Below are positions 19,094 through 63,228 of a stretch of 64,000 nucleotides of DNA, piece after piece. The stretch covers positions 60,078,001 through 60,142,000 of the forward strand of contig OZ024742.1 in assembly GCA_964016885.1 (NCBI GenBank). The letters run 5' to 3'. Below the pieces are notes generated by a model, which was given only the letters and a program-made list of their open reading frames with translations, ran no database searches and had not been told where the DNA came from. The first letter of the stretch is position 1. Each line of letters starts with the position of its first letter. This DNA comes from Eledone cirrhosa. Taxonomy: Eukaryota. A program made the position numbers and the translations under genes.

Positions 19094-19521
19094 TAAATAT
19101 ACACGGGTGTGTATGATTGTGTATAGAAGATTATATTAATAAGAGGAATTCCAACTTTGTCTGATTTACTCGTTTTATTTACAATCCTTTAAAATATATA
19201 TAATATGGTATTATAATGAAATAGTATGATAGAATATTAAATTCTAAGTGTTAATTGAACAAGTACTTTCATGCTTTCGCAATCTTCAGGTTCATGATAT
19301 GTGGTGACAGTCGAGTTTGCAATTTTCAACAGTTGAAAATTGCAAACTCGACTGTCACCACATATCATGAACCTGAAGATTGCGAGAGCATGAAAGTACT
19401 TGTTCAATTAACACTTAGAATTTAACATTCTATCATACTATTTCATTATATATATTATATATATTTTAAAGGATTGTAAATAAAACGAGTAAATCAGACA
19501 AAGTTGGAATTCCTCTTATTA

Positions 19522-20993: not shown

Positions 20994-22155
<1,162 letters not shown>

Positions 22156-22161
<6 letters not shown>

Positions 22162-22940
22162 GATAAGCAGAACAAGTAAAATTCAATCAATTTTTCAAAA
22201 TACATTAACAAATATAATATAAATATTTACCTCTTCTAGTGGCCCTTACTGATCAGTTTCGCTTTGTAAAACCTCATAAATCCGATGATTTATGATGGAA
22301 AACCAAAGCTCATCAGAGAAGCATTTTCCCTTCCTAGGGCTAAACGTCCCAGGAACGACAAAATATACAACCTCCTGCCAGCTAATAAAGGTCTGAAAGG
22401 TCGTAAAATTGACCCGTATGTAAACTGGACCGAAGTAAAAGCGGGAAAATCAAAGACTTGCTGTCTACAATTACTACTAAAAAAATAGCAGCCAAGTAGA
22501 GCAACAGATTTGTTCTCAACGGACGGAGAAAATCTACTTGGCTGCTATTTTTTTAGTAGTAATTGTAGACAGCAAGTCTTTGATTTTCCCGCTTTTACTT
22601 CGGTCCAGTTTACATACGGGTCAATTTTACGACCTTTCAGACCTTTATTAGCTGGCAGGAGGTTGTATATTTTGTCGTTCCTGGGACGTTTAGCCCTAGG
22701 AAGGGAAAATGCTTCTCTGATGAGCTTTGGTTTTCCATCATAAATCCATCGGATTTATGAGGTTTTACAAAGCGAAACTGATCAGTAAGGGCCACTAGAA
22801 GAGGTAAATATTTATATTATATATTTTAATGTATTTTGAAAAATTGATTGAATTTTACTTGTTCTGCTTATCTTAATATTAAAGTTCTGGTGTATCAAAT
22901 TAACACCATTGAACAACCTTGAATCATAGACAACCTATGT
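22156..22940 (+). mobile_element. Fold-back element, family B (~345 bp arms, 32 bp spacer, 3' tail)
   Basis: Arms 22156-22500 and 22533-22878 are nearly identical; tail 22879-22940. Confidence 0.9.
22711..22792 (+). ncRNA. Type I hammerhead ribozyme (predicted), family B
   Basis: ttct CTGATGA GCTTTG..TCATAAATCC atc GGATTTATGA..CAAAGC GAA ACTGATCAGT A aggg. Confidence 0.8.
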
Positions 22941-23768: not shown

Positions 23769-26700
23769 TTACAGATATATACTCAGAGTAGGCCCATTCA
23801 CTCGGGCCATTCTTGCTTCTCTCACCCATCTTTCAACAAAATGCTGGGAAGAGAGCACTTCCCTCTCTACTCTGATTTTCCTTTTCAAATGAAATTTGAC
23901 AAAGTCAATCAGAGCATCACCGAAGAGGTAAGTGCTCGTCTTCAGCCCTTTCAAACGTGTCCACCATACTATCTCTTTCGCCATGGCCACCAGACAGATA
24001 AAAACTGCCTGCCCTTCCAGGCTAAAGGAGGAGGGCGGGGCAATCCTCACGATGGACTCAGATGATAGCCGGATCCGTCCTACACGCGACAGCAGGTGTT
24101 CGACTTAAACCCACAAGTCAGCAATTTTCGGACACTGGACGAGTGCGTGCAGGACGGTTTCGTCGTCCTGCACGCATCTCGGACATGCCCGGCTGACGGC
24201 ACCTCCATGGCTGTAGAGTTTATCCCGAACTGGCAAGGCTCCTCGGTAGCACTGCCAGGCCAGAGATTTCTGGAAGTTGTCCATAGGTCCCAGCTCGAAA
24301 GTTCCTCCGAAGAGATTGGCTAGTTGATTTTCGTCGTCGCCTAGAGTGTCCCCAAGTACGTCGTCGCTCTTCCCCTCCACTAATCCTCTATAGAACGCTG
24401 AGGTGGGGTTTCCACCGATCACATTGCCCGATTGGTCGAGGGCTGTGAGCGCCTGAAGATATTCCAGTCTCCAGGCGCTCCCTCTCTGTCTTCGCTTGAC
24501 CCAGGACTGCAGCTCCGTCAACGAAACGAGCTGGGGAAATACGTGTTTAGCAAACGGCGACCACACCTGATCACCGTCGAGGAAGAGGTTGAGATGTCGT
24601 AGCCTGAGCGCGTGTCTGCGCATCATCATCCACGGCATGCCCAGCCCTTAACGTAGTGGGTGTTGACAGCAGATGGACCGCCTGACCATGGGAGCGCGTC
24701 CCTTCCACAAAAAGCGAAAGAGCAAACGCTCCAGCGCAGTCAGGCGAGGCTTAGGACAAGGTACGACGGTCAGGCGGTAGCAGATGACAGACGCGATGTA
24801 CGCGTTAGCCACCTCCGCTCGACCTTTCAGGGATAGCTTCCACTCCGCCCATTTCTGGGTGAGAGAAGCCACCCTGCTCGTCACCTCGTCCCAGTTTTTG
24901 TCTGTCTGGAGGTCCGGACCGAACCAGACCCCTAGCATTTTAACCGGTCCGTCCGTCCAGCGTCCGGCGATGCTGTTGGACGGCATGGACCTGCCTCTCC
25001 AGGTGCCGAGCTGCAGGCCCACTGACTTTTCCTGCTTGATCATTGTTCCTGTCACCGCTTCGTATTCGACACCACTACAGTGATATCGTCCGCATATACT
25101 GACACGGATCTTCCGCATCCTAGTTCGCGTGGGACGCCCCTCAACGTCTCCAGTTTGTGCAGTAATGGCTCGAGAGTCAATACGTACAAGAGGGACGAGA
25201 GGGGACATCCTTGGCGGACCGAGCGCATGATGTTGAACGGTTCCGAAAGGTGACCGTGCACTCTCACCACAGAGCAGATGTCGCTGTGCATGGCAGCGAC
25301 CCAGCCTCTGAAGACGGGCCCAAAGCCAGCCGCCCTCAGGACTGCCGCTAGGTAACGATGGTCGACCCTATCGAAAGCTTTCGACTGATCTAAATTTATC
25401 AAGGACCCACCCGTGCCAGGTTCCCTAGCTACCCTCTCTACGATGTATCGCATGAGGTGGAGGTTGTCGGGGATGGATCTGTCAGGAATGGCGCATGTCT
25501 GCGCCTCTCCCACCAGACCACCAACGACAAGCGCCAGCTTCTTTGCTAGCACCTTGGCCAAAATCTTGAACTCTGTGTTTAGTAGAGTTATGGGCCTGAA
25601 ATTATCTATGTTATCCCCCTTTTTCGGATCCTTTCTCAGCAGTGCCACCGCTCCTCGGCTCACAGAGCTGGGAATTCTCCCATTCTGTTGCCAGTATCAG
25701 TAGACGTCCGCCAAGAGGCCTCCGAAAAAGTCTGGCATCTGTACGTAAATTTCATAGGGCAGACCATCCAAACCAGGCGATTTACCCCCTGTGCAGCCAG
25801 TCATTGCCTCCCGTACTTCAGTGGCTGTTATCGGCTTTTCGCAACACTCCGCCTCAGTGGCCGAGAGCCGCGGCAGTCCGTCGAGGTAGACACTAAAGTC
25901 CATCCCTCGACCCGGCCCACCGCTGCCCCCGAACAGCTGAGCGAAGTGTCGCTGAAAAGCTTCACACATTTGCCCGAGATCGAGTAGCATGCGCCCGTCG
26001 TGGATCCCAAAGACCGGATCGTGGCTTTGTTGCCACACCGCGCCTTCATCACTCGGGCCCATTGAACGGCTTTCGTCCCCTCGTGTCTGAGAGCACGCAC
26101 CCTAGCTCTGACAACGCAGCCTTCGTGCTTTGCATTGAAGAATTGGTCAAGGGCCAATTTCGCCGCAAGCACGTCGGTCGCGATGCCTTTGCTAAGCGCC
26201 TCGTCTAATTTTCTAACTAGCTCTCCCTCTGCTCAATTTTTCTCTATTGCTAAAGCCTTACTAAACATAATGGATTCTATTCTAATCGCTCTTTTCAGAG
26301 CAAACCACCACTTGTTGTTGACGATGGCCCCCGTCGACGCCCGCTTAACTAGTTCGCTAATCCGGTCTCTGTAGGCATTGCGCGCTGGTAAGGACGCGTT
26401 TATCTTCCAGTAGCCGGGTCCTCGTCTATGAAGCCTATCTAAGTCAAGCACACAGATCACGAATTTGTTGTCCGTGTAGCTGACTATCTTGAATTGTGGA
26501 CAGCCTATGCTAGACCTATCTATTTCCCTACAAAATACTCTATCTAGATATGATCTGGATGACACTATGCGATTTGTCCAAGTCCACATTGGCACATTTG
26601 GGAAATCCAATCGGTACCTGTCAGACAGTTCAAAACGACTGAGCAGGTTGGTGAGACTCTTGCGCCCTCCACCCTATCCGCTAATCCCACACAGTCCCAG

Positions 26701-27145
26701 CGTACATCTGAGATCCCGTTCCAGTCGCCCACTAACACTAAAGAGTGGGACGTTCCAAGAAAGGTCTCCAGACGCCGGAAGAAATCAGGCCGCCCTGCTC
26801 CTGTCGGGGCATAGACGGCCACTAGCCTGAAAGCTTGCCCATCTCCGCTGGTCACGTCCAGCACCACCAGCTTACCCTCTGGGACAGGAAGATGGCCCGT
26901 ATGGCGAGATTCAAACCTCTCCGAAAAAGCACAGCAACTCCTCCCCCCGATACAGGACGACTGGGAGATGCGTACACATCGTAGCCGCCGAAGATCGGTG
27001 CGAAGGCCCGTGCTTCGGAGATTCTGGTCTCGCTGATAGCCACTACATCTATGTTTAGTGACCTGAGGTCATTGAGCAGGTGATCCTCTTTCCATGACGA
27101 CCCCAAGCCACGCGCATTTATGCTGCCTATTCTGAGTGAGGTCAT
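23769..27145 (-). pseudogene. ORF2: AP endonuclease, RT and C-terminal zinc finger, with several frameshifts and stops
   Basis: SINARGL, ISET, VYAP, GDWN, SYLDR, GPGYWKIN, KSPGLDGLP, FRPITLLN, DQSKAFDRVDH, VRQGCPLS, YADD, CPRC...ETVLH...C. Confidence 0.92.
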
Positions 27146-29116
27146 GTTTAAAATGGAGTGGAAAAGATGGGAAAGACCACTTACTGTACTTTTCGTAGAG
27201 GAAGGATGGTCTCCATCCCTTTTCACTTGATCGTCTGGTGGAGGGACCGTTGAATCGTCCCTTCGGCTGGTCGTCGGCTCTTCTATGAGTATGTCCGAAT
27301 ATACTCTCCGGTTGAGAGTCCCTGCTAGGTCTCTGAAATCACCAACTGCGTTGGGGAATTTCGTTTTAATGTTTGTGTATTGTTTCTGTGCTATTTTTAG
27401 CAGTCTTATGTTCGTTGGTGTTTTGATTGGTGCTGGTATTATGTGGTCTTGCTGTGAAATGTCTGTGTGTTCAATTATGTAAGTCATTAGTTTCTTGTTG
27501 TGTGTATTTATTGCCGTGCATTTGATTTTCTGGGGGTGGGGTGTGGTTCTGCTATTTTCTTGTCGTTGTTGCTGGGTGTGTGTGTTTTGTTGTTGTGTTT
27601 GCGATGTTGGTGTTTGTGGTGGTGGTGTTGAAGATGTTTTTGTTGTTGGCGGTACGGTTGTCGCCGGTGCCGATGGTGGTGCTAGTGTGGGTGGTGATGA
27701 TGTTGGTGGTGTTGCTTCTGTGAGTCTCTTTGCAGTAGCCGTTACCCTTTTTTCATTTCTTTCCTCCCTTTTCGAAGGCGACGATGCGCTGCTTCTGCGT
27801 TTGTGCCTTCTTACGACCTCTTGCCATCCCTCTCCCACCTCACACTCCATGTCTGATTCTGTGAGGTCGGGGAGGGGTACCAGCTCTACTATTTCACTTG
27901 TTGTTGGTGATGTTTGCAGTGGAGTCTCTGTTGCAGGCGCATTTGGTATTACTGTTGTTGTTGTTAATACTGCCACTGATGCTGCTGTTCTTGATTTCCG
28001 TGGCGTGGGTATGGATGCCACGGACCTATCGTTCCTGCCTGCCGCCTGTCCTGTTGCTGGTAGCAGTGGAGCCGGTTTCGGAAGGAGGGGGGTTTTCTCC
28101 TTTCTCAGGGTCTTCTCGTTGCAGAAGGCCCTGAGGTAAGTCTTCGATCCACAGCGAAAGCATTTCGGGCGTCTGCCCTCAACACTTATGGGAAGTTGAG
28201 TGCCGTTATCGAAGTCTATCACATCCGGGATAGCTTCGATGCACTCCTGGTTGGTTTGTATTAATATCTCAATGGAGGTGCCGACCCAATCTTCTCTTAC
28301 TTTTTTCTGTACTTGCAGTACAGTTGTTTTGTCCTCGATTCCGACGAAGACAGACGCGGCCAGACAAGAAGGGGCCATCCCGGGGGGGAGGGGGGTCAGT
28401 TTGACCCTCACAATATTTTGCCCGCAGTAGGAGGGCACCAACACCATTTCCTCGCTCCTTAGGGTCACTAAGGATTGAGCTTTTGCCTCCTGGGGTGTGG
28501 CAAAAAGCACGTCTACGGTGGCATATTTCTTGCCTCGGGCGATATGCGTTTTTAGCTGCCACACAGACCCTAAGGCATTTTGTATTTCAGCCTCTGTGGC
28601 TCTTTCAACCCTACGGGATATTGTGCTTACTGTACGGTACGTGACCGTACAGTGCTGTTGGGTTCCGAAACATTTTTCGGCTGCCTTGCAGATTGCTCGG
28701 TGTCCGGTTTTCGTCACCATCTCCTTCGCTTCCTGTAATTCCTCATTTGTTATGAGGATGGTTTCCATGTTCTTTGCGATACCTGCAAACGAGATTGGTT
28801 TTTCTTTGCTGCTGTTGTTGTTGTTGTTGTTGTCGTCAGAGCTGCTGTTACTTTTGTTGTTGCTGCAGGTACTACGACTGCTGCCGCCGTCGCTGTTGCT
28901 GTGGTTGTTGTTGTTGCTGCTGCTGTTGTTGTTGTTGCTGCTAATGCTGTTGTTGTTTATGCTGCTGCTGATGCTGTTGCGGCTGCTACTGTTGTTATCC
29001 TTGTCACTGTTGCTGCTGCTGCTGTTATTACGGCTGCTACTGCTATTATTCATGACGTCAGACGAATGAAATGGGTTTTCGTATTTCCCGCACACCTTTT
29101 TCGTCGTTGTCGTCAT
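27146..29116 (-). CDS. LINE ORF1 (gag-like nucleic-acid-binding protein)
   Basis: Open frame; zinc knuckle CFRCGSKTYLRAFC (CCHC with H replaced by Y); N/S-rich N-terminus and P/T-rich region. Confidence 0.8.
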
Positions 29117-29498
29117 CGTCGTGGAGGAAATGTTGCACGCTTTGCACGTGATTTTTCTTTACTGGTGTCGCTTGCGAAATAGAAGGGAGGGAGAGAGACA
29201 ATCTTCTCTCTGCTGTAGTGACGATTGAGGAAGAAGAAGACGGAATGAGTGGGAGCGACTTGTGAAAATTCTTTTTCGTAGCCATGTTTTTTTTGTTTAA
29301 AATAAATATTGGGCGCAAAACCCCAATAAGCGATTATTTAACCCCGAAGGGCCAAATAACAGGCAGAAAGACCCATCTCACGAGGAGGAGGGTGTTTTTG
29401 TCTACAATTTGGTTAAAGTTTTAAACAATTTACAATTGTTATAGCGGTCAAAATTTACAATACCTTACAGAGCCGAGCCTCCGTCAACCATAGCATTC

Positions 29499-37355: not shown

Positions 37356-39159
37356 ATTATTGGATCCTCCTTTACTTTCTCCAGTCTTGGAGGCCTTGCG
37401 TAGGTTGAAGGGCACAGCTTTTCTCAATCTCAATATAACGAGCTCATTAATTTCGTGACACATGTTGAAGACTATATAATACAATAACATTATGAGGATT
37501 TTAGCAAGAAAGACTATATAGGCTAAATATCAGGAGTAACCTGTTTCACCCTTTCTACATTTAAGCAGAAAATGCCGTTGGGAATAATCTCCCCATGATT
37601 CGTGACTCTTCTCACGGCACATCACAACTGATTCAAACAGAGAGAGATGAGGAGAGAAAATGCAGACATCTGTTCTTCATAGCACATTATCGACATTTAA
37701 AAGATGAAAATAAACTTTCCCCGACAGAATCTGTCCTTAGAGGGCAGCAAGGCGAAATAAATAACGCAAGAGATTCTATTCGAGACCTTAACTACGTTGT
37801 AAATCCGTTGCCATTTTCCCGGCTAAATAGACTATGAAAATCCAATTGAGTTTGCAGGTTTTAATCAGTATAGCTACATTGAAAGATTAAGCAATTTAAT
37901 ATTTTAGACTAAAATCTTTTGACCGAGTTCGTAGAGCACTGGTCGACAGAAGTGAAATAAAGAAAGTTGTTAAGTGAAATATTAGGAAGATAAGAGGGAG
38001 TGAAATCCTTTAAAAATATAAGCACAGCACTTGGTTTTATATAGTATACTGCTCTTTTATAGCAATGAAAAGCAACGACAAAAAAGTAGATTAATAAATA
38101 TGGGGTACTGGCTTCAGGAAAAGATGAACAATACGAATATGTCTGCCATTTACCTTCATTTTGAATAAAACAAATATTTGTCTATCTTTAGAAATAAAAT
38201 AAAAGAGGAAAATGTTGGAGTGATTCAATGAAATGTGCTTGCAGTATTCCTGTAATCATGCAACTGTGTCATTTATATCCGGTTAAACCTTTTGTCTGCT
38301 CGAAAAGAACAGTTAAGTTTGTCTAAATTTTATTCAAGATGTATTGCAATTTACATTGTTAATTTGTATTTGCTGTATTGTTTACATATAGGTTGTTGTT
38401 GATGCTCTTGGTGATGGTGGAATAAAAAAAAGCAATTAAAGAAAAAACACGATAAATATCTTTCACCATATCTGTTTTGAAGCTGAATAAATATTCCCAA
38501 TAAACCAAACAAAAGACCGTATAGATTTTAAATAGGTTTTCTTTTCTTTTTCGTCATTTTTTTCTTCTGAAGTGGAATGGATTTTGTGAGATCATTTGAA
38601 AGGTATATTGTTATCATGTGGCTTTCTTCGATATAGATCTTTGTATATAATATGTAATAGAAATCTGAATATACCTACACATGTACAAATATAAGTATAT
38701 ATATACATGTATATACAAATATATATATATGTATATATGTAATGAAATGACAGGAGGCTGGATTTGTGTAAATCCTTGAAAGGTTTATTATACTATGATC
38801 ATTTCAATGACCGGGTTCCGTATGAATCCGGTGATATCATCAGGTATTCGAAATATAATACGTGAATGTAATAGGTAAAATCCATGGGGCTGAAAATCGA
38901 GACCCGAGGGCGACCGCTATTCTGTTCCTTCAACCTCAGCCGGTTCGAACTTTGGCTACCCGGTGTTTTCGCCTGGCCCTTTGCTACTCCCCTCACAGAA
39001 TATCCGAACTTCGACGAAACTCCACGGACTGGACCATAACATGTATTGTACTGCACTGAATTAACTAAATGGCTACCCTATACTTCTGGGCATGTATAAC
39101 TCACACTGAACTCCCAGACTCGAACACACACTGTTTCCACATCTATATGCATTATCTGA

Positions 39160-39865
39160 CTGCAACTTGAACTATATTGTATTTCTCCTGTGTCTTGAAC
39201 TCTCCATTTAATAGACAACGACTCTTGTTTGTTTATTTATATCTTTACATCTTTATTTGCTGTATTAATGCTCCTCCACGTATTCTACCTCTATACATCC
39301 ATGTACTTTCTACTTCCCTTATTCGGACTTTTACTCGCGTGTACCCTTAGCACTCGTCACTGGAATATTTCCCCCTGGGAACATAAATACCGCAACCTGA
39401 ACTATATTGTATTTCTCCTGTCTCTTGAACTCTACATTTACTAGACAACGACTATTGTTTGTTTATCTATATCTTCACATCTTTGTTTGCTGTATTAATG
39501 TCTTTCCACGTACTCTACCTCTATACATCAACGTACTTTTTACTCCCCTTATTCGGACTTTTACTCGCGTGCACCCTTAGCACACGACACAGGATTGCCC
39601 CCCCGGGAACATAAATACTGCAACCTGAACTATATTGTAATTCTCCTATGTCCTGATTTCTCCATCTTACTCCAACACCACTCTTGTTGGTTTATTTACA
39701 TGTTTATACCTATATATTGATATGTTTATATATTTATACCTCTGCTGTACCAATGTGCTCTTCCACGTATTCCACTTCTATGTATCCATGTATTTCTACT
39801 CCTCACATTGGGACCTGTACCCATTAGCACACGACACTAGAATGTCTCCTCCTGAGAACAATAAT
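39160..39865. repeat. Three diverged tandem copies of an ~230 bp unit
   Basis: gcaac.tgaactatattgta.ttctcct at ~39162, ~39392 and ~39620. Confidence 0.88.
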
Positions 39866-40101
39866 TAAACATTACACGACTATATCCCGTACTCTACATC
39901 CCACTAGGATAAATTACAGATCTACATAATACAATTAACGTTTCTTCATAAAAGACTATTTAATTAAACCCCGCAACCCAAAACCTCATAGAAGTTATTT
40001 GAATGTTTAATCTTCAATTTTCTGTTTGTTCAATTCTCAATCCTCTTACTCCTTAGTTTTATAATGTTATTCTGAATTCTTTCAACTTCATCCGATAGAG
40101 T

Positions 40102-41122
40102 TAAGCAAAATTATAAAGTTCCAACTTTCTGTCGGACCGTTGGGTGGGTTTTGGCGGCGGCGCGACCAGCTCCCTGGCGAACGGGCTCACCTTGAGTGCT
40201 TGGAAAAATAAATTTCCCCTTCTTTCGGTAAATGAAAATACTCGGCGTGGCTTAATTCGCCATGGGGCCCGGGGCGCGGCCGGTGTTTTAACCGCCAAAT
40301 AGTACCTTTAAATTACAGAACAAATCGGAACTATTATATATATCAACCTGAAACTGTTGAGCTTTAAATTTTCTAACCTCTTTAATATGGAATATTGATT
40401 ATTAATTTATTAATTTTTTAACTTCATCCTATAAGTCTAAACATTGTAACACACTGACCCCCAATATATTCACTTCTGCTAAGATGCGAGTCCCTGTGAA
40501 AATTTTGTCGCGCCACTCCTGGCCCGACTGTGGTGTGACATTAATATCGACCTTCCTTCCTCTCTCTTTCTATCTTCCTTCTTGTAGCTATCAACCATTA
40601 CTCTTTTACTTCTCTAAGCAAAATTTTAAAGTTCCAACTTTCTGTCGGACTGTTGGGTGGGTTTTAATGGCGGCGCGACCGGCTCCCTGGCGAACGAGCT
40701 CACCTGGAGTGCTTGGAAAAATAAATTTCCCCTTCTTTCAGTAAATGAAAATACTCGGCGTGGCTTAGTTCGCCATGGGGCCCGGGGCGCGGCCGGGGTT
40801 TTAACCGCCAAATAGTACCTTTAAATTACAGAATAAATCGGAACTATTATATAATTAAATGTTAAACTGTTGAACTTTAAATTTTCTAACCTCTTTAATA
40901 TTGAATATTGATTATTAATTTTTTTAACTTCATCCTAGAAGTCTAAACACTGTAAAACACTGACTCCCAATATATTCATCTCTGCTAAGATGCGGGTCCC
41001 TGTGAAGATTTTGTCCCGCCACTCCTGGCTTGACTGTGGTCTGACATTAATATCGACCTTTCTTCCTCTTTCTTTCTATCTTCCTTCTTGTAGCCATCAA
41101 CCCTTACTTTTCTACTTCTCTC
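40102..41122. repeat. Two tandem copies of an ~510 bp unit
   Basis: aaagttccaactttctgtcggac at 40115 and 40628; units align to their ends. Confidence 0.9.
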
Positions 41123-41508
41123 TTCCCATCCTTCTCTTCTCCCCTCCCCCTGTCTTCCTCCCGCAGACTTATCTTCCTTCCCCCTCTTGCTTGCCTATAT
41201 CTGACCAGTAGTAGTTGCCTTCCTCATTTAGCTGACATTAACCCTGGCTTCTCTTCTTCTTTCTTTCCCCTTCTTCTCTCTCCTTCCTTTCTTTCTTTCT
41301 TTTACCTTGTGTCAGGGGATCGACGTTAACCTATGCTCCCATCCCTTTCTGTTTTCGTTCATCTGACCGGTAGTAGCATACTGTAAAATTTAGCCACGTC
41401 ACTCCAGGGCGACCGGTTGAGGTTGAAGGAACAGAATAACGGTCGCCCTCGGGTCTCGATTTTCAGCCCCATGGATTTTACCTATTACATTCACGTATTA
41501 TATTTCGA

Positions 41509-41566
41509 ATACCTGATGATATCACCGGATTCATACGGAACCCGGTCATTGAAATGATCATAGTAT
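41509..41566 (+). ncRNA. Type I hammerhead ribozyme (predicted), family D
   Basis: atac CTGATGA t at.accgg...ccggt.at t GAA ATGATCAT A gtat. Confidence 0.78.
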
Positions 41567-42049
41567 AATAAACCTTTCAAGGATTTACACAAATCCAGCC
41601 TCCTGTCATTTCATTATAATATTTAACTCCGTAATAGCACCACCAACTACAAAAACAAAGACGGTTGAACTGCTTTACGTTGAGTACTCTCTATATTATT
41701 GCATTACGATTGACCATACGGAATAGACCAGCTCTATACAGTGGTGAACCTCAAACCTGAATATGTATATATGTATGTAGGTGTATGTATATATATCCGG
41801 TTAAACCTATGTATATGTATGAGTATATATATATATTAAAATGGATCCAATAAAAACCTATTAGACCTTTACTCACTAGTGTACTCAATACTTGTGGTAG
41901 TAGAGTGTGGTAATATGATAGATTCAAGACTCCGACGGCCGAGTTCCTGCCGTTTCAACGGCTAGTTCGGAACTAGCTGCTGAAACGGGAAACCGGAAAT
42001 AGCTTAGCCATCGGCTTCCCAACTCACACATCAATGCTTTTAACCGTGC

Positions 42050-44637: not shown

Positions 44638-45790
44638 AGTATGTATGTATACGTACATACATATATGTATACAGACGTACAGTAGTATGTATATATATAT
44701 ATACATACATGCACACATATATATATGCACGTATCTAGCAACCATATATATATGTACGTGTCTAGCAACCATCGTTGCTCATTTGTTCAACACTGATAAA
44801 GGAACGCTGTACTAATTTCAAGCTTATTAGCTATCGTCAGCAACGTATACCTTCCTGCCAGATGATTGAACGTCTGAAAGTATATACTTTCCTTATGCAT
44901 ATTAACGGCTGAGCAGCCTAATTTGCATATCGAGTGAGTTAATCGGCCGGGCGCACTGAAAACGATAAACGGAAAAAATGGAACGAAATTTCATTTCTCA
45001 CTCTTAGTACGGCTGTTACTTAAATATAAGTAAATATGTATACGTACATACATATATGTATACAGACGTACAGTAGTATGTATATATATACATACATGCA
45101 CACATATATATATGTACGTATGGATTCACCGAACATTTATTATAATGCTCCGTGTGTTTGTAAACAAACATCCCGTATTAAGCCGTACAGTGTCTAGCAA
45201 CCATCGTTGCTCATTTGTTCAATACTGACAAAGGAACGCTGTACTAGTTTCAAGCTTATTAGCTATCGTCAGCAACGTATACCTTCCTGCCAGATGATTG
45301 AAGTAACAGCTGTACTAAGAGTGAGAAATGAAATTTCGTTTCATTTTTTGCGTTTATCGTTTTCGGGGCGCCCGGCCGATTAACTCACTCGATATGGAAA
45401 TTAGGCTACTCAGCCATTAATATGCATAAGGAAAGTATATACTTTCAGACGTTCAACCATCTGGCAGGAAGTTATACGATGCTGACGATAGCTAATAAGC
45501 TCGAAACTAGTACATCGTTCCTGTGTCAGTGTTGAACAAAAAGGTGACGTGTTGCCTAAACACTGTACGGCATAATTCGGGCTGTTTATTTGTTTACAAA
45601 CAAACCGAGCATTATAACAAATGTTCGGTAAACCGATACATGCATATATATATCTGTGCATGTATTTATATATATATACATACTACTGTACGTCTGTATA
45701 CATATATGTATGTACGTATACATACATACATACTTACATTTAAGTAACTGCCGTACTAAGAGTGAGAAATGAAATTTCGTTTCATTCTAT
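44636..45790. mobile_element. Family R: tandem plus inverted ~435 bp hammerhead-bearing monomers (retrozyme-like)
   Basis: Minus-strand units 44636-45300 with HHRs 432 bp apart, then plus-strand units 45301-45790 with a 441 bp period. Confidence 0.85.
45476..45518 (+). ncRNA. Type I minimal hammerhead ribozyme (predicted), family R
   Basis: acgatg CTGACGA t AGCT aata AGCT c GAA ACTAGT A catcgt. Confidence 0.82.
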
Positions 45791-46045: not shown

Positions 46046-47349
<1,304 letters not shown>

Positions 47350-52514: not shown

Positions 52515-52573
<59 letters not shown>

Positions 52574-52577
<4 letters not shown>

Positions 52578-52774
52578 TTAATATAGAAGAGATTCTACAG
52601 GACTAGAACTGTTTCATTCATTAGAAATCATCAGGAATCTGAGATTCCTGATGATTTCTAATGAATGAAACAGTTCTAGTCCTGTAGAATCTCTTCTATA
52701 TTAAAACTGTTATACTCTGCTATGTATTGAGTACCTTACTTACTGTGATTACCTCCGATTCAACCCGGAATAAC

Positions 52775-52776
<2 letters not shown>
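52574..52776 (+). mobile_element. Minimal fold-back element, family C (67 bp arms, 1 nt centre, tail)
   Basis: Perfect palindrome 52574-52708 centred at 52641; tail to 52776; pure (TA)n on both sides. Confidence 0.92.
52641..52693 (+). ncRNA. Type I hammerhead ribozyme (predicted), family C
   Basis: gagattc CTGATGA t TTC taat GAA t GAA ACAG ttctagtc CTGT A gaatctc. Confidence 0.85.
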
Positions 52777-52850
<74 letters not shown>

Positions 52851-55733: not shown

Positions 55734-56906
55734 TAGTCAGTTCTTAGATATGCCAGCTCTGTGTTTATAGTTTTGCTGGTATCAGAGCCTTGGGACATAT
55801 GAGCTTGTTAGGAATAATTTAATGTTGTCAGCAGGAATAATCTTAATTCTCATTGGTCAGTTTGTAGATGCTAGTAGGGTTTGTATTTGACCTCAAAAAG
55901 GCAGGTGGTGTTGTAAAGTTCAAACTATCAGGCAAGATGACAATAGTTCCATATGACTGATTTTCACAAAAAGCATTCCTGGTCAGATATATATTCAATT
56001 GGGGTTTATAGTATGAAATTCGATACTACAGGTCAATCTTAAATTGAGGAATTTATGTAGGGTGGTACTACTGAAAATTATGGTTAGAGTAGAATACTAG
56101 AAAATTTACATATAAAAAGACTTATGTTGGTTGACTTGCACATACATTCACAGACGCCCCCACAGACACACACACACATCTACACACACAAATCCATACA
56201 GGTGTGTATATATATATGTACGCACAAGTGCATATATATATATACGACAGAGGCCCTCAAATCCAAGTATAAGGCAGATATAAAACTAGGTGGGTGTTAT
56301 TTTTAAAGAAAAGTAAAGTGGGTGTTTGGAAAAGTTATTGTTTAGACTAGACAAAGTAGAGTGTGATATATATCTTCACAGCAATAGCTTGAGGCTTTGG
56401 AGCTTAGGCGAATTCCTTATAACAGATACACATACCCAGCCACACTTTTATACCTCTGGATGTGCGTGTATGGCGTGTATGTCTATATACACATGTGCAC
56501 TCATACAAGAGAGCATATACAAACATACTCCTAAGCATACACTTGAACATTTTTCAAATGCAACCTGGGGTATTAGTATTTCGTTGCGTTCACATGAGTG
56601 TGTACACTCACGTAATCCCAGTATACACACACCATGTACGGTTGCGGGCACTCATTCATGTGTATAGGGTTAGTAACTTGGTATGATTGTTCTTCCTGTG
56701 AGGGCCACTCCCGGGGTGGGGTGGGGGTGTTCCTCAGGATCAGTAAACGAGGTTTTTGTTGCTTCCTAACCGGAAGAGGATCCGGTGGGCAATCCAACGT
56801 AGGGACCACAAACTATGGGTGGTTGTAGTCCATTGGTCATTGGTACGGGGTGTAGGGGACCTACAGGGGGAGGAGAAGGGGCGTTGTGGGAGGCCAGAAC
56901 CGGGGT

Positions 56907-57465
56907 TTATCCATATAGCTTGAGGAAAGTTCCCGTCCTTAGGTGTCTGCAGGAGCCGAATAAGTCGGCCCTTCTGTTTAATAGCTTGGCTCCGCCATGA
57001 AGTATCTCAAATGTCTCACTAAGACAGAGGTTGCAAATACCAGACCCACCTCTTTCTAACCACGGACCAGACCAGAGAGTGCGGGGTCTTTTCAAGTTTG
57101 AGCTTCCATATCAATTCAGAAAGAACCGTACATTTCCTCTTTTCTATTCTGTTAAAGGAATGGCGATGGTTATACCACCTATCTTTGAAGCTCGTCGCCG
57201 TGGATCCTATGTAGTGGTGCTCCGAGTTAGGGGTTGTGACCTTGCACCTGTAGACTACGTTTTTCGTCATGCATTCATTACTAAGGGGGCATAGTCATAA
57301 GTCTCTGCAATTGCATGACTTCTTAAGCCCCAGCACATGTACCGCGTGGTTACCATCACTCGGGGCTTGCTGGGTAGCCGTCGCAATCAGCACAGGGTCG
57401 TTGGGTTCCAGTGTGCTAGATGGGCCTGTCCGGGGACTGGTGTGTCCCGTCTGCTGGTTCCGTTG
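56907..57465 (-). pseudogene. PLE GIY-YIG endonuclease remnant
   Basis: CNCRDL*LCPLSNEC..NVVY...YIGST..FKDRWYNH..SF...TVLSELIWKLK...CNLCLSE...LLNRR...CRH. Confidence 0.88.
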
Positions 57466-57561
57466 GGTATATATATATATACTTGTGTTGGAGCTCTGAT
57501 ATACCGATGTATATATCAATGTACGTATTGTATATTTAATAATATACTCTATGTTTATTTA

Positions 57562-57625
57562 TAATAGAAAAATGGGTTCTACAGGACTAAAACTGTTTAA
57601 TTCGGGAGAAATAATCAGGAAGCCG
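57562..57625 (-). repeat. Degenerate family C arm with mutated HHR core
   Basis: ctacaggactaaaactgtttaattcgggagaaataatcagg resembles 52594-52636. Confidence 0.65.
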
Positions 57626-58257
57626 ACAGTCTAAGTAAAATGCAGGTATTTATACCTTTTCTGGTGTTAGGAGAGGATGGTAATTGGGAGGGGTTGATGG
57701 GTTTAAAGAAAATGGAATTCTTTAAAGACTATATTTAGAGTAACAAAATCAGGAAAAATTCAAGCTAAATGCATGTAGACAGATTCACACTGGGGGGAGG
57801 GGCACTCCTGATTTTTAAGGTTCGTTTAAATAGTTATTCATTGGTAGGTCTATATATATATATATATATATACATACACCCCATCCACACACATATATAT
57901 ATACATAGACACACATATATATACACACATACACATATATATATATACACACATACGTATACATATATACACACGCACAGACGCATATATATATATATAC
58001 ACATACGCGCAATACAAGTGGAAAAGGCAAGTAGATAAGAAGTACTTACATAATTTTAGTACCATGAGGCGGATCGAGGGCAGCCGGGGGGGGGGGGGAC
58101 TTGCTATAAGGGTAGGGGGTAGGATGGGATGGAGGAGGAGGGTATATTTTGCAGAGTTGCGTTTTTTTGAAAATTATCCATCTGGCAGCAAGACTGGCTT
58201 GAAATAAAAGTTTTTCTGCATGCAATATATATATTGCATGCACATAAACATTGCAAG

Positions 58258-59951: not shown

Positions 59952-60283
59952 AAATATAAATAAATATATATATATATATATATATATATTTATTTATATA
60001 ACTTGCAATGTTTATGTGCATGCAATATATATATATATTGCATGCAGAAAAACTTTTATATATATATATATATATAAATATATAGTAATAATAATAAATT
60101 TGAAGACTTAAATCCAAAGAGGGGTCGATAAGGATAAATATATATCAAATATATAAGAACCGTAGAGCAAATATTTATTAAAATAACAGATTAAAGTTTA
60201 AGCAAAGAATCGCTGCTTTCACCCTTAACGGGATCTTCTGAAACTAACAAAGTCAATCTGTAAACGCAGAACTGGATATTTCG

Positions 60284-61079
60284 AGCGTATTTTCAACGAC
60301 CATTCCACTTATTACAATGAAGCTCTTGCTCGAAGTGGATTTGTCGATAAGGTAGCATATACAGAGTACGAAAATAGACCTAGAAGAAATAGATCCCGTC
60401 GCATTTGTTGGTATATCCCACCATATAACATGGAGGTGGCCACACCATTAGCTAAGATCTTTCTTTCCATAATTACGTAGCATTTTCCCCCTACACATAA
60501 AATAGTAAAATTTTTAATAGAAATACTATTAAAATTTCTTACTCTACGACTCCTAACCTTGCACATAAGATCACAGCTTCAAATTTAGCTAAACTACCTA
60601 GCCGTAGGAACACGTGCAACCCTGTAGTTAGTAGTAACTGTAATTGTAGGAATCGGGTTGATTGCCCCCTATCCGGGAAATGCCTCTCTAGTAACATTGT
60701 CTACAAATGTAAGGTTGTAACACCCACGTCCCGTAGGGCCTACATAGGGTTAACTGCCAATAGATTCAAGCAGCGTCTTTACATGCATACCCATTCTTTT
60801 CGTTACCCTATATGAAGGAATATGACGTCACTTTCAGCTTATATCTGGAGTCTAAAAGACAACCACACCCAATATAAGTTACACTGGGAGGACCTAGCTA
60901 GGGCTAGATCGTATAACGGAAATAAAAGACCATGTGACCTCTGCGCCGCTGAGGCCCTGGAAATACTCTACGCCACAGACCACATCTTAAACAAAAAATC
61001 TGAGGCAATTTCGGCTTGTAAACAGAAATTGCACAAAACTTTCCTGTATTACAGCCCCACGTTATACCCTAACGGATAG
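60284..61079 (+). pseudogene. PLE RT C-terminus/linker and GIY-YIG endonuclease remnant
   Basis: WYIPPYN...HFPPTH..KIFNRNTIKISYS; CNCRNRVDCPLSGKCLSSNIVY...YIGLT..FKQR..H..SF; TSLSAYIWSLK; CDLC..E; LNKKSE. Confidence 0.9.
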
Positions 61080-62251: not shown

Positions 62252-62683
62252 TACAGGTACACATACATATATGCACGCATCAGTTTAGCGGACGCTTATT
62301 ATAACGCCGCTTTGTTCGTTTGTAAACAAACTGAACAGCCTGAATTTATGCCATACGGTGTTAAGGCAACCACGTCACCTTTTTGTTCAACACTGACACA
62401 GGAACGATGTACTAGTTTCAAGCTTGTTAGCTATCATCAGCACTGTATATCCATCTGCCAGATAGTTGAACGTTCGAAAGTATATACTTTCCTTATGAAA
62501 ATTAACGGCTGAGCAGCCTAATTTGCATATTGAGTGAGTTAAATCGGTCAGGCATACCGAAAACGCTAAGTTGAAATGAAATGAAAACGAAATTTTATTT
62601 CTCACTCTTAGTATGGCACTTACTTAAATGTAAGTATGTATTTATACGTACATACATATATGTATACAGACGTACAGTAGAAT

Positions 62684-62736
<53 letters not shown>

Positions 62737-63167
62737 GTGCATGCTACTGTACGTCTGTATACATATATGTATGTACGTATACATACATACTTACATTTAA
62801 GTAAGTGCCATCCTAAGAGTGAGAAATGAAATTTCGTTTTCATTTCATTTCAACTTATAGTTTTCGGTATGCCTGACCGATTTAACTCACTCAATATGCA
62901 AATTAGGCTGCTCAGCCGTTAATTTTCATACGGAAAGTATATACTTTCGAACGTTCAACTATCTGGCAGATGGGTATACGGTGCTGATGATAGCTAACAA
63001 GCTTGAAACTAGTACATCGTTCCTGTGTCAGTGTTGAACAAAAAGGTGACGTGGTTGCCTTAACACCGTATGGCATAAATTCAGGCTGTTCAGTTTGTTT
63101 ACAAACGAACAAAGCGGCGTTATAATAAGCGTCCGCTAAACTGATGCGTGCATATATGTATGTGTAC

Positions 63168-63228
<61 letters not shown>

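Follow-up and report, generated by a model that had tools for sequence, protein, structure and literature searches.

The 64,000-nucleotide stretch of Eledone cirrhosa DNA analysed here (hereafter the window; contig OZ024742.1, positions 60,078,001 to 60,142,000) contains at 52574-52776 a hammerhead motif facing its own mirror image, with a tail on one side only and TA repeats on both. In a preliminary description this sequence had been taken for a distinct minimal element of about 200 bp and for the cleanest copy available for experiments. The locus raises the question of what the sequence is and how a hammerhead came to lie head to head with its own mirror image.

Table 1. Features of the copy at 52574-52776 and its flanks (window positions; +1 = 52642)
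Feature	Position	Strand	Basis or remark
(TA)n target, left half	52518..52573		pure TA; A52574 may also be target repeat
Inverted arm, +1..+67 of the family pLTR RNA	52574..52640	-	perfect match to sense arm; outer-end clustering in sampled copies
Mirror hammerhead with a stem I of 6 bp; cut predicted after 52596	52590..52640	-	mirror core on minus strand
Unpaired centre G	52641	+	junction base
Type I hammerhead, from the inferred transcription start	52642..52692	+	motif and fold analysis
Stem I	52642-47/52687-92	+	native 6 bp
Core CUGAUGA	52648-52654	+	motif
Stem II	52656-58/52663-65	+	3 bp, closed by U.U
GAA	52667-52669	+	motif
Stem III	52670-73/52682-85	+	4 bp
GUA cleavage triplet, predicted cut after 52686	52684-86	+	motif
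Sense arm, +1..+67	52642..52708	+	arm plus tail one base different from long copy L089
Tail, +68..+134, one side only	52709..52775	+	5′ leader in parent; family end positions
(TA)n target, right half	52776..52850		97% TA

The perfect 135-bp palindrome (52574-52708) was found as described, with two perfect 67-bp arms around a single unpaired G (Table 1). Its surroundings had been called pure (TA)n, which is correct for the left flank, up to and including A52574, whereas the right flank is only 97% TA; A52574 and T52776 may be part of the target repeat. The sense arm contains the CUGANGA, GAA and UH core of a type I hammerhead and three helices of 6, 3 and 4 bp, among them the full stem III and the GUA triplet noted earlier, and the mirror core on the minus strand confirmed that the motif is encoded by both strands. 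The centre had also been placed at the first base of a 7-bp stem I. This holds for the plus strand, where the seventh pair is due to the junction G; the long copies and the minus strand carry C there, the native stem I has 6 bp from 52642, and an RNA beginning at 52641 would gain a non-native pair. The canonical G10.1-C11.1 pair is absent from stem II and U.U occupies its place, as at the stem II base of two hammerheads listed in the available part of the Hydra-clade account (PMC8557442); the hammerhead as a whole was unlike the Hydra rows compared there, and its 4-bp stem III and 3-bp stem II distinguish it from the Penelope-like element (PLE) hammerheads in the available parts of PMC4209133 and PMC3846280.

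An Rfam search gave no match at the gathering score. The isolated arm folded no better than its shuffles (z -0.26), and the predicted share of the full hammerhead fold was 0.04-0.07 for the arm alone and 9e-6 when the tail was included. Among 12 related variants 97.4% of the helix cells were paired, compared with 35-46% when the helices were slid. Two of the 13 pairs, both among the six of stem I, had changed on both sides, and these compensatory changes, seen in related sequences at a level matched in 77 of 500 shuffles, are suggestive only. Loop III is predicted to be able to pair as a dimer. By these models the hammerhead is weak as an isolated motif, and its self-cleavage is a prediction. 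Read-through RNA of the palindrome was predicted to form a single hairpin (-107.8 kcal/mol, z -23.6) in which the probability of all 13 hammerhead pairs is about 1e-53, thus the hammerhead fold is excluded there and the earlier expectation that the hairpin would block the ribozyme was borne out.

A 26-nt word from the tail was matched exactly at 8,565 places in the 3.0-Gb genome. Through long copies extending upstream, a parent element (L078) was found, which consists of a pLTR, an 811-codon open frame, a 3′ region, a second pLTR and an inverted arm. Its 3′ region is long and microsatellite-rich, including a TA/TG microsatellite of approximately 1.8 kb (L078:5440-7240) at which certain copies, for example L032, have an internal end, and the unit is approximately 4.8 kb. 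The parental ATG is at +182, and what is tail in the window copy is 5′ leader in the parent, ending 48 nt upstream of this ATG. The parent protein (P0001) is a single ORF in which the reverse transcriptase (RT) is followed by a C-terminal YIG motif, and it carries RWR, DKT, YRDD, CxCX5C, and CxxC and CxH next to E and N. Among 70 sequences RW[KR]A was found in 62, DK[TS] in all, the CxCX5C linker in 67, and CxxC and CxH beside conserved E and N in 69 each, while the CCHH motif was present in none of the 70 and is also absent from the parent protein. A Pfam search with P0001 gave nothing significant, GIY-YIG was detected by Pfam in two of seven homologues, and PDB sequence searches gave no significant match; in the structure model (pLDDT 87) the top Foldseek matches were telomerase RTs (TERT). 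Of 8,000 candidates scored, 1,274 were homologues of the parent protein, and the sole species-named one among the 120 homologues listed was from a bivalve.

The Hydra clade of PLEs is defined by an RT with C-terminal GIY-YIG, RW[KR], DKT, CxCX5C, CxxC and CxH next to E and N, the lack of CCHH and (TA)n targets (PMC8557442, available part), and PLEs in general are known for inverted 5′-truncated copies, for tails and for TA targets (PMC8557442, PMC3846280, available parts). In our sample (described below) a TA run followed the tail in 86 of 91 copies and an adjacent inverted arm was present in 56; tandem plus inverted pLTRs with the hammerhead were seen in L077 and L078. Judged from the motifs of its parent family, the window copy is the truncated hammerhead-plus-tail end, with an inverted arm, of a new family of Hydra-clade Penelope-like retrotransposons. 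It shares with that clade the hammerhead in the pLTR, the inverted 5′-truncated copy and the (TA)n targets, whereas Hydra elements are usually shorter than 3 kb (PMC8557442, available part) and here the unit is longer, with a microsatellite-rich 3′ region. Naiad, which the cysteine motif had first suggested, was rejected on domain order and motifs: Naiad/Chlamys PLEs have an N-terminal endonuclease and are not expected to carry a canonical hammerhead, while here the endonuclease motifs lie at the C-terminus and the pLTR has a hammerhead.

A decayed relative of the same pLTR, with a TATA box and a damaged hammerhead core, lies at window 57558-57790 (minus strand), and 3′ fragments of other Hydra-type ORFs, with 34-48% identity to the parent protein, at 56859-57315 (minus) and 60220-61076 (plus). 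Further hammerhead-like cores of other families, mostly head-to-head pairs, were seen at 22150-22900, 38750-41620, 44750-45640, 46050-47230, 47733 (with a canonical G-C stem II), 55728 and 62270-63170. The 427-codon open frame at 11374-12654 (minus) resembles a host seven-helix receptor, and those at 668-3049 and 24108-29158 (both minus) have the look of LINE-type reverse transcriptase elements.

To see where the copies end, 92 loci were taken from the first 100 entries in the list of tail matches, all from the first 57 Mb of one contig; dropping a duplicate context left 91 distinct copies. As an exact tail match was demanded, the sample favours young tail-bearing copies. Positions were counted from +1. 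The minimal form seen in the window accounted for 48 of the 91 copies. The earlier view of a distinct element and cleanest copy is thus not supported. No other product class of this large Penelope-like family is as common, and the exact junction of the window copy recurred in 3 of 30 sampled G-junction copies. The furthest 5′ reach was at -1..+3 in 35 copies, +4..+15 in 14 and beyond +15 in 11, while 4 ended at -60..-2, 15 at -397..-61 and 12 further up. The same wall was met by the inverted arms, 30 of whose 56 inner ends were at -1..+3, and their outer ends fell mainly at +59..60 (18) and +66..68 (25). The two arms were joined through microhomology in 27 cases, insertions in 20 and blunt ends in 9. 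Only in a few copies (L118, L122, L124, L171) do the arms look non-overlapping. Ribozyme cutting was rejected as the maker of these ends in the minimal class: the cut site lies within 55 of 56 inverted arms and within 76 of 91 sense arms, and only 3 of 91 sense ends come close to it, at +44..+48. The long copies could have originated from a cut and religated circle.

In long subfamily variants, +1 lies 30 nt downstream of a TATA box, TATAAATA, in an initiator-like context. The palindrome centre is thus likely to be the transcription start of the pLTR RNA, which would be capped there, and it is this probable start, not the ribozyme, that places the centre at stem I. As to the base before +1, genome-wide 7,269 matches had CC (long copies carry C), 2,068 had G, and 468 had A or T. 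By a scripted rule, 16 of 30 sampled G loci and 6 of 20 A/T loci were explained neither by the partner arm or the target nor by stem I or a long copy; correction by hand (L191 and the duplicate L201 out, L182 in, L216 out of A/T) gave about 15 and about 5, which scale to roughly 1,000 unexplained G versus 120 A/T. Among the 16, G was on the tail strand in 7 and on the arm strand in 9, and both arms carried it in L203/204 and L227-L231. T precedes G in 14 of the 30 G loci, therefore templating by stem I contributes to the extra G, but it was rejected as the main source and can account for at most a part, as stem I sequence was reached beyond G in only 116 of the 2,068 matches. A G-bearing parent subfamily was also rejected, promoter-like upstream sequence being found at one of 30 G loci (L197).

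In a second family, with 35,316 matches, the two 3′ ends are the same and the wall stands about 29 nt downstream of a TATA-like box; G was found there at 5,420 matches versus A at 890, and the partner arm could supply the G at 8 of 20 G loci. The putative start of this family (L031:6192-6420, loci L265-L324) falls within stem II of the hammerhead. RNA made by the family promoter would therefore be missing the first ribozyme half, and only read-through RNA could cut. At L031:6220-9175 the inverted end of the first family is joined to the ORF and tail of the second via a short common word, possibly a product of two RNAs. The wall of a third family lies about 31 nt below its TATA box; it is uninformative on the cap because the base tested was mostly C (28 of 30) and the few G cases have a templated source. 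Elsewhere in the window, the palindromes at 8644-9036 and 19212-19450 belong to another hammerhead-bearing family and have a common centre at the wall of that family, about 31 nt below a TATA box; the centre word has 4,645 genome-wide matches. Capped full-length LINE-1 insertions are marked by an extra G (PMC11702581, available part), and the excess of G before +1 suggests a cap signature of the same kind. Across the family the unpaired centre G is likely cap-derived; G52641 itself is ambiguous, as it could equally be the C at -1 read by the inverted arm.

As the simplest account, to which we give a probability of roughly 0.6, we propose that a (TA)n target was cut, that each of its two ends primed a cDNA on a single capped transcript, and that the two cDNAs were joined head to head, which left a promoterless by-product. 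The TATA promoter of the pLTR would start the RNA at +1, the first base of stem I, and the endonuclease of the element, given the preference of the family, would cut (TA)n. One DNA end would prime at +134, so that the tail end marks the start of the first cDNA, and the other at +59 or +67; in the window copy the inverted arm would be the cDNA primed from the left target end at this second site (+67), and the stretch between the two sites would appear as the one-sided tail. Both cDNAs would traverse the uncut hammerhead to the RNA 5′ end, where the cap may often be copied as C, and their 3′ ends would be joined via microhomology or short insertions. The template would be one capped RNA, or RNAs from one locus. 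The TATA box is missing from the window copy, which is probably a dead end, inert because it has no promoter and its read-through RNA would be double-stranded.

Self-priming has already been proposed for PLE palindromes (PMC3846280, available part), and the same family and RNA start could be combined with a mirror arm made by a single cDNA folding back at the RNA 5′ end, the hairpin then being nicked at +59/+67 or its new 3′ end being joined to the target. The two arms had one subfamily haplotype in 32 of 32 readable minimal copies (chance 0.28 each), as expected from fold-back, and the inverted arm reached further 5′ than the sense arm in 26 copies and less far in 7, the two differing by no more than 4 nt in another 23, a direction of skew predicted by fold-back with nicking. 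Both observations therefore fit this route too, and junctions through stem I do exist (L092, L176, L228; 116 matches). Nevertheless, a single fold-back route gives only one of the two asymmetries, so two separate routes would be required for both, and likewise for a G that is found now on one strand and now on the other opposite a short partner arm (L181, L199, L200 versus L177, L179, L185). Fold-back would also not produce the solo arms found between TA runs (L178, L182, L183), and could not start from a one-base loop such as that of the window copy, since a hairpin loop of one base is impossible by established RNA and DNA geometry. We regard a fold-back origin as a serious but less probable alternative.

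The wall itself could be a 3′ splice site, with G-A-G as the end of the upstream exon in a spliced RNA. The walls of all three families resemble an acceptor, having a pyrimidine tract plus YAG, and the intron of D. virilis Penelope runs up to the 5′ border of helix I (PMC4209133, available part). However, the sequence upstream of G is not constant (18 different 4-mers among 30 loci, 12 among 20 in the second family), a TATA box stands at -30, and two families would both need a GAG-ending exon with the cDNA stopping there, which makes this explanation improbable.

It is very improbable that the 200-bp unit propagates by itself like a retrozyme or SINE, being transcribed, self-cut and re-inserted. 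The short copies number in the thousands, retrozymes have been reported to derive from PLE pLTRs (10.64898/2026.07.22.740005, available part), and like non-LTR retrozymes the window copy is non-coding, pLTR-related and has a type I hammerhead. Such retrozymes, however, are head-to-tail tandems, while the window copy is a single head-to-head pair and not clonal: 43 different junctions among the 48 minimal copies indicate separate origins in place of unit propagation. Minimal copies also lack the TATA box, their ribozyme cannot fold in read-through RNA, and the sense ends rarely lie near the cut site. A retrozyme-like head-to-tail trimer of the hammerhead region with a 221-nt unit (-20 to about +200) does exist (L226:1040-1720; G000:C1:67880850-67881330), yet its junction is confined to this single locus. 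The CC pattern before +1 had 5,041 forward and 2,228 reverse matches, every other pattern being balanced, which points to an extensive tandem array of this hammerhead region lying on one strand; the trimer was rejected as the source of the skew. A fold-back read or assembly artefact is hardly credible: perfect palindromes amid TA runs are difficult to assemble, and in an empty-site look-up contigs ended at the TA runs of the locus and none spanned it, but such arms occur in 56 of 91 copies, their outer ends are defined and their junctions differ, and in 12 of the 32 arm pairs the arms have diverged from each other.

The proposed course has its closest counterpart in the Anolis PLE PAc (Poseidon), which in vitro cuts and extends both strands on uncut RNA, its RT starting internally at two sites that bound the tail; hammerhead cleavage, which occurs only with the protein, is not needed (PMC11167929, available part). 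Two internal starts, extension of both strands and an uncut template are common to both. PAc has a short tail and identical start sites on the two strands, whereas here the tail measures 67-75 nt and the start sites of the two sides for the most part differ. The available part of that account neither explains inverted repeats nor mentions a cap. LINE-1 twin priming is alike in the second cDNA from the other DNA end, the end joining and the extra 5′ G, but the inverted L1 piece abuts the first cDNA within about 10 bp (PMC11702581, available part). Here, both arms usually cover +1..+60, with an overlap of 67 nt in the window copy in place of the little overlap of L1-type pieces, therefore the RNA was copied twice and a palindrome results. 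Opposite-strand hammerhead pairs, the location of most motifs in truncated PLEs, palindromes at inverted junctions and a palindromic loop III are also known (PMC4209133, PMC3846280, available parts); cleavage of dimers and an antisense template for self-priming have been suggested there, while the junctions studied here point to a sense, capped one. The D. virilis Penelope promoter is internal and TATA-less (PMC2377424, available part), which differs from the TATA-directed start proposed here. Neither the start-site wall nor the extra G is described in the available part of the Hydra-clade account (PMC8557442), and a literature search including few subscription papers did not find the wall, the cap G or two-ended priming as a source of PLE palindromes. 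What is new is thus the wall, the cap G and the two-ended priming reading, the element itself being a truncated copy in a known clade.

The origin of PLE inverted repeats has been named as open (PMC8557442, available part), the earlier proposal being self-priming on an antisense template (PMC3846280, available part). Thousands of junctions now speak for a template that is sense and capped and is copied from the two DNA ends, in agreement with the PAc system in vitro. We give an even chance to the broader view that Hydra-clade PLEs routinely integrate in this way, each DNA end copying one and the same RNA, capped and uncut, from a separate internal start, which would explain at once why PLEs have an inverted pLTR, a tail on one side and palindromes at their junctions. 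About half of the young copies would then be 5′-end duds, whose extra G would locate start sites without RNA data and map the promoter of each family from DNA alone.
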